Part shown: piece by piece, positions 17,479 through 60,018 of the stretch
Layout of the letters: every line of letters starts with the position of its first letter
How positions within the stretch are numbered: position 1 is the stretch's first letter
Source of the DNA: Escherichia coli
GTDB lineage: Bacteria; Pseudomonadota; Gammaproteobacteria; Enterobacterales; Enterobacteriaceae
Direction: 5' to 3' (one strand)
Assembly (NCBI RefSeq): GCF_022846255.1
Contig: NZ_AP025682.1
Length of the DNA: 64,000 bases
The notes under the pieces: model-generated
Databases searched by the model: none
Seen by the model: only the letters and a program-made list of their open reading frames with translations
What the model was told of the DNA's origin: nothing
Program-made: the position numbers and the translations under genes

Positions 17479-17748
<270 letters not shown>

Positions 17749-17954
17749 TTACCGTTAAATCATTTTAAAAATCAGTAAGTTGTATCGAGTTTGTATGCTT
17801 TACTGTCATTAACTTACTGTATGTTGATCCAGTGTATTTAACCTTGATAAACTCAGTCCAGTAACACAAAGCCGCAACACATTGCATTTTGTCCCGTAGA
17901 AAAGACTTGTATGTGTGTGCTTGTTTTCTGCGCCTACGCAGATAAGGATTGAGA

Positions 17955-21002: not shown

Positions 21003-21920
21003 TTATAATAGTGCTGTTACTATTGCATCTTTAAAAATATTTTCTTCTTCATTTATTAAAGGTGATGACAGATGAATAATTACTTCTTTTCCTGTCAATA
21101 CTATTTGCTCGACTTGAAATCCTGCGTTGTGTAGTCTTTGGCGTAACTTTTCTAGTGCTGATTTTGATATACTAAATCCTTCACTCCTTATAGTATAACT
21201 GGCAACTCCATTTTTAATAATATCTACAGAGTTGTCAATTTCCTGCTGCGAGTAATTTTTCGGTGAGTCGAAAAATCTGGATTTTGTCGTTGCTGTTGCC
21301 CTAAGAGATATCAATAATGATTTGATATCTTTAATCTCAGATGCCAGATACTCAGTTTCTGATACTTCTTTCTGGTCTAGTTGTGCAACTTTGAAAGTGC
21401 CAAAATGTTTGAGGAATGTTGTGTATTCAGGATCAGTTACTGACTTTAAATATGTTTCTTTTATCTTGCTCGCAAGTCTTTCTTTGAATAAATTGATTGA
21501 TTGGTATCTTAAATCCGAAGGGTACTCTAAATGTTCAATTGATGAAATGTCAAAGCTATAAGGAGTGCGCTCGTCCTTAATAATTACGGTCGGTTTGTCA
21601 AATGCGAGACGCATTCCTAATTCAAACATTACATTAGCGTTTCGAGCACTTATATCGCAAACAACTATGGGGTTTTCATAAAGATTTTGAACAATTCGTT
21701 TTTGTATTACTGCAACATCATCATCTGAACTTACCAAATTTGCCTTGAATCCGGCATCATTTGATGCTTCACAAATAATGTCATGAACATTTCTCCAATG
21801 TCCAGTGGGATAACCTTCTATGTCCGCAATTGGCATAATAATGCCGCATATATGAGGTGGCATATTTTTGTTGTCTTTTACATCATCTTGGTTTATTTCT
21901 TTCGTTTGTTGCTTAGCCAT
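21003..21920 (-). CDS. hypothetical cargo protein with N-terminal TIR-like/NDT-like domain
   Basis: 305 aa; motifs ICGIIMPI, PIVVCDIS and RNANVMFELGMRLAFDKPTVII resemble the beta-strand and NV-x-FELG core of the 253-aa protein; AT-rich by eye. Confidence 0.35.
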   Translation of the reverse strand: MAKQQTKEINQDDVKDNKNMPPHICGIIMPIADIEGYPTGHWRNVHDIICEASNDAGFKANLVSSDDDVAVIQKRIVQNLYENPIVVCDISARNANVMFELGMRLAFDKPTVIIKDERTPYSFDISSIEHLEYPSDLRYQSINLFKERLASKIKETYLKSVTDPEYTTFLKHFGTFKVAQLDQKEVSETEYLASEIKDIKSLLISLRATATTKSRFFDSPKNYSQQEIDNSVDIIKNGVASYTIRSEGFSISKSALEKLRQRLHNAGFQVEQIVLTGKEVIIHLSSPLINEEENIFKDAIVTALL

Positions 21921-22649: not shown

Positions 22650-23411
22650 TTACGAGGAAGCGTTAGCTATTTGAGCTTGTGTAAATTCGAAACCAGAATT
22701 TTGTAACCGTTGCACTAGACGAGGAACTGTTTCACGTACATGGTCGTTGAAATTCAGATACAAAATCCCGTTAGCATCAGAAGGCTGTTCTAGGTGCTGT
22801 TTCTGAAGGATTGCTACATTGCTGCGCCCTAAGGACGAAAGAAGCATACCCATCTCGAGTACAACGTTCTGTCTTGCGCGGGGTTGGATTTCTGCTTCAC
22901 CGGCGCGCTTTGAGTATCCCATATCATCAGGTGTCAAAAGAACAATCCCGAAACGGGTAGCAGTTTGTCCTTGCCCAATTTCACGTTCAAGCTCTTCAAT
23001 AATGGTGAGTCCAGTCCCTCCCGTATTCTGCAAAATGAAATGGTCTGGTAATCCAAGTTTATGAAGGATTAGCTCAAGTTGTTCCTTTGCAGTATGGTCA
23101 TGGCCGTGAACAATGAATATCTTTTTGGGAAGCTCAGATGGCTGTTCTACGGCTAGTGGTGTTGCCGTGGGGGGCGTTCCTAAATGGGACATTATTGCAG
23201 TTTCAACATTGGGACGTTCTTGAGGGTTACCTTGAAACTGAATGGTCCGGGTGGTGTAAAGGTTAACAATTACGCCATTCGTTAAACGATAGCAGTCATA
23301 AGTCTCACGCTGTTCGTGGGAAAAATTGGTGAACCCACACTCCCTCAAAAAGTCAGGAAAAGATTCTCTCGGGTATGGATAGGTGATCGGCATTTCAGTT
23401 AGTTCCTGCAT
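22650..23411 (-). CDS. hypothetical cargo protein with C-terminal TIR-like domain
   Basis: 253 aa; KKIFIVHGHDHTAKEQLELILHKLGL and RARQNVVLEMGMLLSSLGRSNVAILQK resemble the COG4271-type TIR-like nucleotide-binding fold (from memory of motifs); unrecognised ~100-aa N-terminal domain. Confidence 0.45.
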   Translation of the reverse strand: MQELTEMPITYPYPRESFPDFLRECGFTNFSHEQRETYDCYRLTNGVIVNLYTTRTIQFQGNPQERPNVETAIMSHLGTPPTATPLAVEQPSELPKKIFIVHGHDHTAKEQLELILHKLGLPDHFILQNTGGTGLTIIEELEREIGQGQTATRFGIVLLTPDDMGYSKRAGEAEIQPRARQNVVLEMGMLLSSLGRSNVAILQKQHLEQPSDANGILYLNFNDHVRETVPRLVQRLQNSGFEFTQAQIANASS

Positions 23412-25627: not shown

Positions 25628-27130
25628 TTAATATGATAAATAATCATACAAGCATAAAAGTCGCCTGTATTGGGTATCAATTTTATGCCCTGGTTTTGTT
25701 AAATAATCTCGTAGTTGTTTCAATGAAATAGTATCGTTTAGTACGCAATACATAATCGTGTTAGCAACTTTATACTCTTTCGTTTCTTTTAGTATTTCAT
25801 CAATAGACACAGCCTCACTCTTACATGTTTTAATTCGAGAAAGGTTACCAATGATTTTATCTAGCTGCCGTTTTCTGTATGTCTCGGTATTTTCTAGTTC
25901 AGGGCAGATAGAACTAAAAGCGTATATTGGAAAGTGTTCGCTATTAGCTATGGTTTGCTTATTCAGTAATGCGATAAGCTGAGAGTTTGCTTCGTCAACT
26001 ATTTTAAAATAGTTCTGTATCATTTCAGATTTTGTTTGATAAACATATTGTACGGTTCTTTCTGAACCAACAGCAATGACCATTTCATCATTGCGAAGTT
26101 CATCTAAATTTTCTGTAATTTTAACCTTTATCTCACCACCACTTTTGATGGTACTCCAAACTTTTTGAACCTTTCTTATGTCCATTGCGGATACTGGCAA
26201 AACTAGTCCCGAGATGGCATCATATACAGCTTTGTAATTGTTTGTTTTTATTTTGTTTATTCTTATGATAGACATGCCTTCTATATCTATGTCATGCTCC
26301 GTAATTTCAGTTGACATGCTGTCTTTTTCGTATTCAACCAAAAGAAAATTATCTTTTATCCTTTTTGCAAGTTCGGTATTTAAGTCAACGTATGAGAATA
26401 TGGTTTTTAATAAGTACTTAATGTTTTTATCGCTAATACTATACCCTATAAATATGATAGGGTTGTGTATGAATATTGAGAGTAATTGAGCGCGAATTAA
26501 CTCATATTTATTGTCGAAGTTTGCGTAGTCTTCACCTGTGATAATTATGTTGTTAGGATCACTAACACAGCCATGTATTTTGTAAACTGAACCGTATGGG
26601 TTACTTAAAAGAATGTTATTACCAATCAGTGGGTTAAATTCGAAGATGTTCTCTACGAGTTGGTCGTAGTTTGTTGTAATGATGGAGCCTATGTTTTTTC
26701 TTGTTTTTATTAAGCTGTTTATTTCCTCCATCATTGACTCTTTTATCTTTAGGTCTTTAAGTATTGAAGTTAAATAAATTTTGAATCGACTTAGTTTTTT
26801 TCCTTTTTTCATGTGCTCATAGAAAACATCATTGATGTCTTTGAACTTACCGTTACGATCTTCTGCCAGCTTTTTATTAAAAATATCTTCAAGTTTTGTA
26901 GCTAAGATATCATATCGATAGTCGTCACCTTCTAGGCTTTCAGCTTTCAAATCGTAGTAAAACTCAGCATTACCGGTTAGTTCCATTGCGACACTCAAAA
27001 GAAGACCATCCCAGCTAAATGAGTTTTCTAGATACCGTAGGCTAAATCCTGTTCCAATGAATAGAACAGGGTGGTTTTTATAGTGACTTACAAACTCTTG
27101 GATTTCCATACCGATTCTCAAAGTTGACAC
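25628..27130 (-). CDS. SIR2-like domain protein (SIR2_2 / ThsA-type N-terminus, unknown C-terminal domain)
   Basis: 500 aa; LFIGTGFS, ITTNYDQLVE, KIHGCVSDPNNIIITGEDY and PIIFIGYSISDKN align by eye with the ThsA SIR2 motifs; GTG start with AGAGG Shine-Dalgarno (alternative ATG at 27109); AT-rich. Confidence 0.7.
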   Translation of the reverse strand: MSTLRIGMEIQEFVSHYKNHPVLFIGTGFSLRYLENSFSWDGLLLSVAMELTGNAEFYYDLKAESLEGDDYRYDILATKLEDIFNKKLAEDRNGKFKDINDVFYEHMKKGKKLSRFKIYLTSILKDLKIKESMMEEINSLIKTRKNIGSIITTNYDQLVENIFEFNPLIGNNILLSNPYGSVYKIHGCVSDPNNIIITGEDYANFDNKYELIRAQLLSIFIHNPIIFIGYSISDKNIKYLLKTIFSYVDLNTELAKRIKDNFLLVEYEKDSMSTEITEHDIDIEGMSIIRINKIKTNNYKAVYDAISGLVLPVSAMDIRKVQKVWSTIKSGGEIKVKITENLDELRNDEMVIAVGSERTVQYVYQTKSEMIQNYFKIVDEANSQLIALLNKQTIANSEHFPIYAFSSICPELENTETYRKRQLDKIIGNLSRIKTCKSEAVSIDEILKETKEYKVANTIMYCVLNDTISLKQLRDYLTKPGHKIDTQYRRLLCLYDYLSY

Positions 27131-57628: not shown

Positions 57629-58123
57629 TTACCGTCCAATGATTAACGCTGAGACGCTGGTATCTGAAGGAAAGGCTGCATTCAGTGGTTTGTCGACTTT
57701 GAACACAATCGTATTATTCCCCCTGACAGCGGCAAAAGAACAAACCGCAGTCGCGTATGAACCTGTAATATTACTGGATACACCACCATAAGCTGTTGTT
57801 GATACCAGAGGGATAACGCCCAGCACCTTATTAGGAAATACAAAGGGCAATGTGGCTGTGGCAATATAAGACTTATTAGAGCCTGTGATGGCATAAGCAT
57901 TATCAGTCATTCCATTCATCGCCACCGGGCCGCTTATACTTACAGTAACCATCTGAATGATTAGCCCGTCAGGTTGACGAATCACAAAATTTCCATTGCC
58001 ACCAGTAACCGTCCAGAAAGACATATCAGGGATTTGGTTTTCCCCGTTGCCCACATTCCGTTTTGCCGCTTCTCCCAAACCAACGTTTATGAAAATGCAG
58101 AAATAACGAGCAAATGGCATCAT
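57629..58123 (-). CDS. alternative tail fibre variable C-terminal segment (Sv'-like)
   Basis: Minus-strand ORF whose 5' end (..INVGLGEAAK) spans the right crossover site; expressed only after inversion fuses it to the constant fibre N-terminus. Confidence 0.55.
   Translation of the reverse strand: MMPFARYFCIFINVGLGEAAKRNVGNGENQIPDMSFWTVTGGNGNFVIRQPDGLIIQMVTVSISGPVAMNGMTDNAYAITGSNKSYIATATLPFVFPNKVLGVIPLVSTTAYGGVSSNITGSYATAVCSFAAVRGNNTIVFKVDKPLNAAFPSDTSVSALIIGR
58069..58083. repeat. right crossover site of the invertible segment
   Basis: CTTCTCCCAAACCAA, reverse complement of 56128..56142; about 67 bp upstream of the invertase start. Confidence 0.6.
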
Positions 58124-58149
58124 TCCTGCTTTTGTCAGGGAGATCTACC

Positions 58150-58704
58150 ATGCTTATTGGCTATGTACGCGTATCAACAAATGACCAGAATACCGATCTA
58201 CAACGTAATGCGTTGAACTGTGCAGGATGCGAGCTGATTTTTGAAGACAAGATAAGCGGTACAAAGTCCGAAAGGCCGGGACTGAAAAAACTGCTCAGGA
58301 CATTATCGGCAGGTGACACTCTGGTTGTCTGGAAGCTGGATCGGCTGGGGCGTAGTATGCGGCATCTGGTCATTCTGGTTGAGGAGTTGCGCGAACGTGG
58401 CGTTAATTTTCGCAGCCTGACGGATGCTATTGATACCAGCACACCGATGGGGCGTTTTTTCTTTCATGTGATGGGGGCCCTGGCTGAAATGGAACGAGAA
58501 CTGATTGTTGAACGAACAAAAGCTGGACTGGAAGCTGCTCGCGCACAGGGACGAATTGGTGGACGTCGTCCCAAACTTACACCAGAACAATGGGCGCAGG
58601 CCGGGCGACTAATTGCATCAGGAGTTCCTCGCCAGAAGGTGGCGATCATTTATGATGTTGGCGTATCGACTTTGTATAAGAAGTTTCCGGTCGGAGATAA
58701 ATGA
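58150..58704 (+). CDS. serine DNA invertase (Gin/Pin/Hin family)
   Basis: 184 aa from MLIGYVRVSTNDQNTDLQRNAL...; closely resembles Mu Gin as recalled; the ORF-track start at 58114 is an upstream in-frame ATG. Confidence 0.85.
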   Translation: MLIGYVRVSTNDQNTDLQRNALNCAGCELIFEDKISGTKSERPGLKKLLRTLSAGDTLVVWKLDRLGRSMRHLVILVEELRERGVNFRSLTDAIDTSTPMGRFFFHVMGALAEMERELIVERTKAGLEAARAQGRIGGRRPKLTPEQWAQAGRLIASGVPRQKVAIIYDVGVSTLYKKFPVGDK

Positions 58705-58784
58705 AACCGTAGCACGTCGTATGCAAGAACGTGCCACGGCTGGCTGATAAGCTTGTAAAAATATTGAACAGGGAGTGGAGCATT

Positions 58785-59432
58785 CTATGAAGCTAATTTG
58801 TTTAATTTCATTTGTAGTGACTTTACTTCTTGGTCGATAATGTCGAATCCCTTATTGACAGCATCTCTTAGCTCTGCATCAATATTTTTTATCCCTTGAG
58901 CATAATCTACCATTACATTTATTTTTGCATCATGTAATCTCTTATACATGGTTTTATCTTTGTTATTGTCTGCCATGCCAATAAGGATTTTTTCATAATC
59001 CTCAATGAGTTTGTTGTTTCCTTTAAATGATTGTATTAATGAGCGTGAATATGTGTATATGTTAATTATTGAGTCTCTAGCAGAATCATTTAGTTTTGCA
59101 ATGACATTCGCATTTTGCTCATAGAATGTGAAATTATCATCCCCTACAGGGAATGTGAGAATCAACATTTGTCCCGGTTTTATATTATCAATGTGTGTTT
59201 TCATCCTTTTATTATATAAATTGATTAGGGTGAAAACTTCTCCCTTAACTCCTTTTAATACTGAAAGTTGTAATTCAAGGGATTCTCTTTCTGTCTCTAC
59301 TTTAGACAGCTTAGCTTGTTGGGTAACTCCTTTTAGGGTAAACCATCCGCCAATAAGAGTACCAACTAGAGCTGTGAGGGAGGAGGATAACCATCCAGGT
59401 ATGCTATTTAAAAGATTACTAAATTCACTCAT
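58785..59432 (-). CDS. membrane-anchored coiled-coil protein (cargo, unknown function)
   Basis: 215 aa; N-terminal membrane helix (SSLTALVGTLIGGWFTL), coiled-coil, C-terminal domain; very AT-rich. Confidence 0.45.
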   Translation of the reverse strand: MSEFSNLLNSIPGWLSSSLTALVGTLIGGWFTLKGVTQQAKLSKVETERESLELQLSVLKGVKGEVFTLINLYNKRMKTHIDNIKPGQMLILTFPVGDDNFTFYEQNANVIAKLNDSARDSIINIYTYSRSLIQSFKGNNKLIEDYEKILIGMADNNKDKTMYKRLHDAKINVMVDYAQGIKNIDAELRDAVNKGFDIIDQEVKSLQMKLNKLAS

Positions 59433-59490
59433 TATAAGTACTCGCTAATATTGAACGATATATATATCAAATTATTATAAAACTCGTCAG

Positions 59491-59769
59491 CTACTGGAGC
59501 AGGCTACCTGAACTTCGATCTATTCCTGCATCCATATAGTTGATGGTCTTCTGGAGCTCTTCGATTAGGGCAACAGCTTTTGCTCGAGAAATGCATATTA
59601 GTTGATCCGGAAATTCTTGTAAGGGCCAGTTTGGTATACAGGCCATGTTATCAGTGAAGGATGCAGACAAGTAAACTTCATTGGTAACCAGAGAATAGCT
59701 TACCTCAAAATTGGTGAGTTCCGGCAAACTGCTAACGTTTGACTCTTTTCTGCGCATAATATTATCCAT
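59491..59769 (-). CDS. small hypothetical protein (cargo, upstream partner of the membrane protein)
   Basis: 92 aa from the internal ATG (MDNIMRRKES...); the ORF track extends to 59919 through the G10/C10 tract; AT-rich. Confidence 0.4.
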   Translation of the reverse strand: MDNIMRRKESNVSSLPELTNFEVSYSLVTNEVYLSASFTDNMACIPNWPLQEFPDQLICISRAKAVALIEELQKTINYMDAGIDRSSGSLLQ

Positions 59770-59851
59770 GACTGTAATTATGTACAGGTGATGGTCTTCA
59801 ATTTCGAAGAGGGAGTCAAGGGGGAGTCTCAAATGAACCGTTATAGAAAAA

Positions 59852-59861
59852 GGGGGGGGGG
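59852..59861. repeat. G10 homopolymeric tract
   Basis: Ten consecutive G upstream of, or within an N-terminal extension of, the 59491..59769 gene. Confidence 0.5.
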
Positions 59862-59970
59862 ATCTTTGTGTTGCTGAACTTATGCAAAATTTTTTTGCAC
59901 CATAAATCCAACAACACATTCAATAACACATTGCTGTATCACTATGAAAATAAATGTGTTTTTATTTGAT

Positions 59971-59988
59971 TTCACACATATCACAATT
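59971..59988. repeat. attR core, 18-bp direct repeat TTCACACATATCACAATT
   Basis: Identical to 17692..17709. Confidence 0.7.
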
Positions 59989-60018
59989 GATGCATTTTTT
60001 AGTGATTAACAGCGCCAT
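59971..60018 (-). pseudogene. yfhL: displaced original 5' fragment of yfhL (16 codons)
   Basis: Minus strand reads ATG GCG CTG TTA ATC ACT AAA AAA TGC ATC AAT TGT GAT ATG TGT GAA ([16 protein letters not shown]); 19 of 30 bp identical to the phage-borne yfhL 5' end outside the core. Confidence 0.6.

Follow-up and report, generated by a model that had tools for sequence, protein, structure and literature searches.

The window analysed here, a stretch of 64,000 nucleotides (nt) from the Escherichia coli contig NZ_AP025682.1 (RefSeq assembly GCF_022846255.1), carries a prophage whose right end holds two neighbouring genes, one encoding a protein of 215 amino acids (aa) and the other a small protein of 88 aa. 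From comparison with relatives, this region is best explained as the attachment-site (att)-proximal cargo slot of a SEN34-like prophage rather than as a two-gene system in its own right. The AT-rich 215-aa gene is a cassette that moves independently, and the 88-aa gene is a component of the phage backbone. Prophage cargo genes in variable slots are of a familiar kind; the family of the 215-aa protein is widespread and lacks annotation. For the 215-aa protein only, superinfection exclusion or abortive infection is plausible, on the basis of genomic context and architecture and not of homology, and we give a probability of about 0.45 to its being a membrane-anchored phage-exclusion protein.

A variable cargo slot beside attR

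An earlier interpretation of the window from its letters alone (the sequence-only reading) had placed both genes between the invertase gene and the right attachment site, attR, and this agrees with the att direct repeats and the invertase coordinates (Table 1). The 88-aa gene was the final gene before the att site at every locus examined in SEN34-like prophages, with integration at yfhL in E. coli, at a tRNA site adjoining SPI-5 genes in Salmonella and downstream of cytochrome bc1 genes in Citrobacter and Salmonella. The cargo between this gene and the tail-fibre/invertase module varied and was always co-oriented with the 88-aa gene. Citrobacter prophages contained nothing in the slot and kept the invertase and the 88-aa gene, SEN34 and Salmonella prophages contained an O-acetyltransferase gene with small open reading frames (ORFs), and vB_EcoM-611R5 contained a gene for a 281-aa protein. 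The 215-aa gene was found alone in the window, together with an acyltransferase gene in E. coli A37, and together with genes for a ThsB-like TIR protein (E=8e-43) and PDC-M50A (E=4e-26) in E. coli FP4 (L029 2340–3621). In comparison with 611R5, the swapped segment corresponded to positions 58411–59475, with a right edge in the spacer between the two genes, 15 nt past the 88-aa stop codon. The 215-aa gene was present in some and absent from other near-identical prophages. This region has several attributes of 'moron' cargo, namely a position between tail module and att site, a deviant base composition, and presence/absence or replacement among close relatives. The view that the site is typical of conversion or defence cargo was borne out by the O-acetyltransferases of SEN34, Salmonella and A37 and by the ThsB-like and PDC-M50A genes of FP4. 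In E. coli, Salmonella and Citrobacter, the interval from the 88-aa gene to the tail module would be a usable landmark when SEN34-like prophages are searched for further cargo.

The 215-aa ORF proposed from sequence was confirmed and is annotated in RefSeq. Its GC content was 33.2 %, compared to 49.3 % for the prophage and approximately 50 % for the tail genes, which is about 3 standard deviations under the mean for 648-nt windows. Low GC content had been proposed for both genes, which holds for the 215-aa gene; the 88-aa gene, at 43.4 %, deviates mildly from the prophage. The strand and the end of the smaller gene, at 59491, were correctly called, while its length was revised from 92 aa (start at 59769) to 88 aa. 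The ATG at 59757 was chosen as the start because the ATG at 59769 is not conserved (replaced by CTG in two otherwise near-identical loci), because homologues are 87–88 aa long, and because the match to phrog_17793 (E=9e-45) aligns from residue 5, with residues 5–92 of the 92-aa ORF covering positions 1–88 of the 91 in the profile. The ratio of nonsynonymous to synonymous substitution rates (dN/dS) of the 215-aa gene was 0.10–0.17; for the 88-aa gene, dN was 0.11–0.22 with saturated dS. As both genes are under purifying selection, both are real. RefSeq has no annotation for the 88-aa gene in its O103:H2 12009 record.

The 215-aa gene was detected in 79 of 5,426 complete E. coli genomes (~1.5 %), always as one chromosomal copy, and was located in the yfhL prophage in all five of the E. 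coli genomes with annotation that were inspected. Close relatives of the protein (60–75 % identity, 215–223 aa) formed 216 clusters across the Enterobacterales, and the whole family, obtained by an exhaustive search (E<=0.001), comprised 452 clusters at 50 % identity, mostly of 190–220 aa. The 88-aa family comprised 61 clusters by sequence search (87–88 aa, all 'hypothetical'), from E. coli, Salmonella and Citrobacter only; Foldseek added relatives with 28–56 % identity in Klebsiella, Serratia, Yersinia and Sodalis. By tblastn over all fetched loci, the two genes co-occurred only in the E. coli yfhL prophage and in a related prophage lineage at a tRNA site. The latter has both genes in the same order, and its 215-aa protein is 97–98 % identical, whereas identity falls to ~85 % in the DNA that begins shortly before the 88-aa gene and reaches to where the 215-aa gene starts. 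This difference points to cassette exchange at a fixed position.

Outside the SEN34-like lineage, the 215-aa homologue was found without the 88-aa gene in every context examined, amounting to more than 12 independent contexts. These were diverse. Homologues were located directly after cI-like repressors, which is likewise the location of rexAB in lambda; between integrase and regulatory genes in capsid-encoding satellite-like elements of Klebsiella; beside CcdAB in an integrative and conjugative element (ICE) of Dickeya; beside HigBA in an Enterobacter islet; after parAB in a phage-plasmid; and at the end of a Citrobacter prophage. Two P2-like phages had a homologue between the tail-completion gene S and the baseplate gene V (the orf30 site), and in another P2-like phage a homologue was found between the replication gene A and the portal gene Q (the tin/old region, or TO-region), beside a gene for a PifA-like protein (E=2e-65). 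Horizontally acquired genes gather at three P2 loci, namely the orf30 site, the Z-region and the TO-region (PMC3091744), and the gpA–gpQ locus of P2 is an anti-phage hotspot (Rousset et al. 2022, PMC9122126). Approximately 110 nt of upstream DNA were conserved in four of these elements, the Enterobacter islet, the Dickeya ICE and two P2-like phages (L004, L010, L040, L046). This stretch, which is absent from the window's copy of the gene, contains an extended -10 motif (TGTATAGT) and the palindrome AAGTTAACTT, and from its sequence looks like a portable promoter/operator. The palindrome is also present in the Klebsiella loci L049 and L052.

These distributions bear on the idea of a functional pair, for instance a toxin–antitoxin (TA), sensor–effector or protein–chaperone system in which the 88-aa protein regulates or neutralizes the membrane protein. 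In its favour, the two adjacent genes share an orientation, no terminator is predicted in the 58 nt that separate them, every inspected E. coli copy and the second prophage lineage at the tRNA site show them linked, and the 88-aa protein is small and acidic, as are many antitoxins and inhibitors. However, prophages of Salmonella and Citrobacter, as well as 611R5 and SEN34, carry the 88-aa gene but not the 215-aa gene, the 215-aa homologues dispense with the 88-aa gene in all the contexts listed above, the 88-aa family is far narrower, and neither protein matched a TA family in PADLOC, NCBIfam or Pfam. A functional pair is therefore considered improbable, and the two-gene module of the sequence-only reading is not supported; the genes are distributed independently and share, at most, a transcription unit.

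The only family match for the 88-aa protein was phrog_17793, with none obtained from PADLOC, NCBIfam or Pfam. An AlphaFold2 (AF2) model of this protein had a mean predicted local distance difference test score (pLDDT) of 71 and consisted of three strands followed by a long helix. Besides relatives of the protein and uncharacterized proteins, Foldseek returned at E<0.001 a single AlphaFold model annotated as DUF1488 (E=2e-4, 29 % identity). The fold of DUF1488 (PF07369) is of the alpha+beta class, its sheet having four strands and a left-handed crossover (PMC2954204), and a Pfam scan of 26 members of the 88-aa family gave no match, to DUF1488 or otherwise. A HicB-like antitoxin fold, considered from the strand–strand–strand–helix order, was dropped as it was unsupported by Pfam and Foldseek.

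A role for one or both genes in morphogenesis, lysis or tail-fibre switching (as a holin-like protein, tail-fibre chaperone or invertase accessory factor) was also weighed, as the genes adjoin the tail-fibre segment that undergoes inversion and one membrane helix is present in the larger protein. Neither protein matched a structural, lysis or tail family in PHROG, or a family in Pfam, and no homology to tail-fibre chaperones or invertase accessory factors was found in these databases, in line with the earlier judgement that neither protein resembles a structural or lysis protein. The 215-aa gene comes and goes among near-identical prophages and is missing from Citrobacter prophages that have both the invertase and the 88-aa gene. 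Its homologues reside, apart from tail and lysis genes, in a phage-plasmid, an ICE and a chromosomal islet. The absence of family matches and the presence in non-phage elements effectively refute this role, which we regard as very improbable.

Predicted architecture and proposed function of the 215-aa protein

The 215-aa protein is predicted to be a single-pass inner-membrane protein with a short periplasmic tail, one helix and a cytoplasmic four-helix bundle. An AF2 model built with 35 homologues (pLDDT 84, predicted template modelling score 0.71) has a helix at residues 13–82 that includes the membrane segment, a loop, and helices at residues 116–154 and 160–214, which together form the four-helix bundle. 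The single N-terminal membrane helix of the sequence-only reading was thus retained, while its separate coiled coil and C-terminal domain are one continuous unit in the model. The membrane helix spans approximately residues 15–33 and has a glycine-zipper or small-residue zipper (A21, G24, G28, G29), of which G24 and G29 are at least 90 % conserved across the family. The topology was predicted from charge distribution. Among 122 family representatives, the mean number of lysine and arginine residues within 15 residues of the membrane helix was 0.37 on the N-terminal side vs 3.07 on the C-terminal side, with the C-terminal side richer in 113 representatives and the N-terminal side in four. Relatives with an N-terminal extension start with a signal-peptide-like segment. 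The charge asymmetry and these extensions predict a cytoplasmic bundle with the N-terminus outside. An invariant FPVGDDNF motif is located in the loop after the first helix, and further conserved motifs are FPVGDDNFTFYEQNA and YTYxRSLIQSFKGNN. Residues conserved family-wide (E65, Y73, F101, Y104, Y126, N139, N140 and Y177) form a Glu/Tyr/Asn cluster on the modelled bundle, in which no enzyme-like motifs were detected. In the model, this cluster has the look of a surface for binding and not of a site for catalysis.

The profile and structure searches suggested with the sequence-only reading gave a clear family for the 88-aa protein, phrog_17793, and for the 215-aa protein only generic bundles and a likeness to DUF4760. 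No match for the 215-aa protein was found in Pfam, PADLOC, NCBIfam, the structural, lysis or tail families of PHROG, or a sequence-profile search of the PDB. Ten distant relatives searched against PADLOC-DB v2.0.0 gave chance-level matches only, and every match in a profile search with distant relatives was 'hypothetical', without a Pfam domain or name. Foldseek with the 215-aa model returned generic helical bundles, uncharacterized proteins and DUF4760 only.

Phage exclusion is favoured as the function on four grounds. Members of the family repeatedly occupy the lysogeny operons and defence hotspots of many mobile elements, known defence genes neighbour some of them, the prophage of the window has other AT-rich defence candidates (PDC-S35, PDC-S25), and a membrane helix prone to oligomerization is joined to a sensor-like cytoplasmic bundle. 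A study of another element reported that six of eight randomly chosen P4-hotspot loci of unknown function protected against phages (bioRxiv 10.64898/2026.02.27.708500), which raises the prior for a defence role. The new systems named in this 2026 P2/P4 preprint do not fit the architecture of the 215-aa protein. In the proposed mechanism, the 215-aa gene would be expressed from the lysogen, co-transcribed from a promoter proximal to attR and perhaps additionally driven by its own weak promoter. On the inner side of the membrane, the cytoplasmic bundle would recognize a cue from an infecting phage, and the glycine-zipper helices would then oligomerize, leading either to membrane damage (abortive infection) or to a block of genome entry (superinfection exclusion). 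The 88-aa protein would be dispensable for this action.

The chief alternative is that the 215-aa protein is an accessory factor outside defence, a membrane-anchored regulator or adaptor for host physiology, envelope stress or element maintenance. This is consistent with the lack of defence homology, with the serotype-converting acyltransferases that occupy the same slot, with the homologues adjoining plasmid partition genes and TA stability modules, and with a bundle that resembles a binding or sensor domain and has no catalytic signature. However, homologues recur in the anti-phage hotspot of the P2 TO-region, have PifA-like and ThsB-like genes as neighbours, and directly follow cI-like repressors in the manner of lambda rexAB. 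This alternative is accordingly rated as possible, with a lower probability than phage exclusion.

Several observations weigh against exclusion. The 215-aa protein has no homology to a known defence, exclusion or toxin family, and no homologue was detected by tblastn against 50,697 deposited phage genomes. The slot also holds cargo unrelated to defence, such as O-acetyltransferases. A promoter scan called none on the minus strand upstream of either gene, and the candidates seen by eye were weak. In some E. coli proteomes (P0118, P0119, P0341, including O55:H7 G2583_3093), the protein is recorded either as 139 aa long, beginning at M77 and so without the membrane helix, or with a frameshifted C-terminus, which may reflect mutation or the choice of gene call. 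Literature searches by protein accession, by locus tag (G2583_3093) and for yfhL prophages turned up neither a study of these genes nor expression or phenotype data.

A further point against exclusion by the 215-aa protein alone concerns a possible partner. A conserved protein of ~140 aa, with a coiled coil and a zinc ribbon of two CxxC pairs, is encoded 27–36 nt after the homologue in Klebsiella satellite-like elements (L055, L057) and in an unrelated contig (L050). The Klebsiella and L050 partners are 31 % identical (E=1e-26), and the homologues that they accompany are 55 % (Klebsiella) and 29 % (L050) identical to the query. Homologue and partner may constitute a two-gene variant of the family, and the presence of the zinc-ribbon protein in two distant branches suggests that, in certain settings, the 215-aa protein may depend on a partner; the window and most contexts lack the partner gene. 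From this it could be argued that the protein is the effector half of modular systems and is here an orphan, either inactive alone or acting with an unlinked partner. An 'endonuclease' (phrog_4225) between a cI-like repressor and the homologue in L042 is a second arrangement of this kind. However, besides the general absence of the partner, the close family is a strongly conserved stand-alone cassette whose ~110-nt promoter-like upstream DNA is kept in four elements, and a dN/dS of ~0.1 argues against decay. An orphan effector is therefore thought unlikely, though marginally less so than a functional pair with the 88-aa protein. In another locus (L026), a 176-aa membrane protein beside the homologue was considered as a possible paralogue or DUF4760 member (hhalign probability 42 %, no Pfam match).

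If phage exclusion or abortive infection is the function of the 215-aa protein, it would be an easily testable single-gene system that is missed by current annotation tools. If its function lies outside defence, it is a well-conserved membrane protein of mobile elements to which no function has been assigned. A wider proposal is more doubtful than exclusion by this one protein, namely that the family, with at least 452 clusters, is a new and widespread anti-phage family, a portable single-gene or modular effector consisting of a glycine-zipper helix and a cytoplasmic sensor bundle, which would here be part of an operon led by the 88-aa gene and tuned by a poly-C/T tract, and so be phase-variable.

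Expression signals and the wider prophage

The spacer between the two genes contains a perfect TATAAT at 59474–59479, without a credible -35 element. In the tRNA-site lineage, a good promoter was read by eye upstream of the 88-aa gene (TTGACT-18 nt-AATAAT). A terminator-like hairpin follows the 215-aa gene (fold energy -22.5 kcal/mol, z=-2.5), and this hairpin, combined with the lack of an intergenic terminator, makes co-transcription of the two genes from the attR side plausible on sequence grounds. By blastn, a segment of ~50 nt that includes the hairpin (58682–58755) was common to HK97, HK106, phiP27, Rac-SA53 and many Shiga toxin (Stx) phages, and in HK97, phiP27 and Stx phages the matching segment sits near the ends of late operons or late regions. 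This segment may act both as a common terminator and as a joint at which recombination exchanges cargo. An Rfam match to the Shigella small RNA CssrB at 58682–58738 was sub-threshold (31.7 bits vs 76).

A homopolymer tract, C10T5, precedes the 88-aa gene. Its length varied among loci that are otherwise 96–99 % identical, with C10T5, C8T5, C7T4, C9T6, C6T3 and interrupted forms. The tract may be a slipped-strand switch or tuner of the cargo operon; homopolymer sequencing error is an alternative explanation for this variation.

Table 1. Positions of the features of the window, and of the partner gene in other contigs
Feature	Position	Strand	Remarks
attL	17685–17729		45-nt direct repeat; 18-nt core TTCACACATATCACAATT at 17692–17709
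305-aa protein gene	21003–21920	-	Weak TIR match; defence candidate of the same prophage
253-aa protein gene	22650–23411	-	PADLOC candidate PDC-S35, E=1e-108; same prophage
500-aa protein gene	25628–27130	-	PADLOC candidate PDC-S25, ThsA-like SLOG/STALD region, E=4e-158; same prophage
Pin/Gin-type serine invertase gene	58114–58704 (alternative start 58150)	+	Convergent with the cargo genes; left border of the slot
Terminator-like hairpin	58695–58741	-	14-bp stem (58705–58741), then UUUCAUUUAU; 43 nt past the 215-aa stop, abuts the invertase stop
Cargo	58785–59757		Between invertase and attR core
215-aa cargo gene	58785–59432	-	WP_001288820.1, 'hypothetical protein' (RefSeq)
Intergenic spacer	59433–59490	-	58 nt, 24 % GC
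88-aa protein gene	59491–59757	-	Soluble acidic protein, phrog_17793; probably the leading gene of the leftward cargo unit
Homopolymer tract C10T5	59847–59861	-	~90 nt upstream of the 88-aa start codon
attR	59964–60008		45-nt direct repeat; identical core TTCACACATATCACAATT at 59971–59988, in the 5' end of host yfhL
~140-aa partner gene	L055 7702–8130; L057 7702–8124; L050 1235–1663		Klebsiella satellite-like elements (L055, L057); unrelated contig (L050)

The prophage (~42 kb) is a SEN34-like (Brunovirus-type) myovirus with lambdoid-style modules and its own DNA polymerase, inserted at the 5' end of the coding sequence of host yfhL. The E. coli chromosome of the window extends from rseA to acpS on the left of the prophage and comprises yfhH, pgpC, tadA and mltF on the right, with host yfhL starting immediately right of attR. 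A substitute yfhL 5' end is carried by the prophage at attL (17685–17760), which restores an intact yfhL frame there. In a metagenomic viral contig (L032 7423–7470), the sequence upstream of the 88-aa gene was joined to the phage-type yfhL 5' end, an attP junction that suggests that a phage of the window's type excises and circularizes. The invertase gene is intact in the window, frameshifted in O103:H2 12009 (L001 5452–6005 and 6733–7373), truncated in 611R5 (L002 2550–2864) and reduced to a fragment in the sister prophage of E. coli FP4. Two more AT-rich islands of the same prophage (~32–36 % GC), and a gene between them, encode defence candidates. The PDC-S35, PDC-S25 and TIR-match genes are interspersed with the helicase, DNA polymerase, single-stranded DNA-binding protein and exonuclease genes of the prophage.

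Comparison with known systems

A structural likeness of the 215-aa protein was found to the uncharacterized DUF4760 (PF15956). Two AlphaFold models of this family matched with E=3e-7 and TM-scores of 0.75–0.79, and a third with E=7e-5 and a TM-score of 0.5–0.6. These models are of similar size and likewise have an N-terminal membrane helix and a helical bundle. However, neither the query nor 32 family members had a Pfam match, and identity was 16–20 %. The four-helix-bundle domains of the chemoreceptors Tsr and Tar, and DUF3829, were 8–11 % identical to the 215-aa protein, and generic bundles and de novo designs scored nearly alike. In the chemoreceptors, two membrane helices flank a periplasmic domain, whereas the 215-aa bundle is predicted to be cytoplasmic and follows a single helix. 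A chemoreceptor-type sensor domain was rejected, as the protein is predicted to have neither the periplasmic location nor the two membrane helices and gave no sequence match.

Lambda RexB, P22 SieA/SieB, T4 Imm and HK97 gp15 are small, membrane-anchored exclusion proteins of the inner membrane. Such proteins are prophage-encoded and expressed in lysogens, from genes beside the repressor or at prophage ends, alone or with one partner. The 215-aa protein differs from them in having no match to Pfam, which would include the Pfam SieB family, or to PADLOC models. To our knowledge, the arrangement of one membrane helix followed by a cytoplasmic four-helix bundle of ~180 aa matches none of RexB, SieA/SieB, Imm and HK97 gp15.

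The variable loci of P2-like phages resemble this slot in that three P2-like contigs carry 215-aa homologues in the orf30 site or TO-region, one of them beside the PifA-like gene. The slot in turn resembles the P2 loci in being AT-rich, in varying in content among related prophages and in holding known defence genes in relatives. The prophage of the window is, however, a SEN34-like myovirus and not P2-like, with a slot between invertase and attR, and the 215-aa family is likened to the P2 systems by position. O-acetyltransferase cassettes (SEN34_29) share the slot, the orientation and the location downstream of the 88-aa gene with the 215-aa gene (SEN34, Salmonella and A37), and oac of Sf6 is a serotype-converting O-acetyltransferase cassette at the att-proximal end of that phage. 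The 215-aa protein differs from the acyltransferases in having one membrane helix and no acyltransferase domain. As its gene is found alongside an acyltransferase gene in A37, it is a separate item of cargo from these cassettes.

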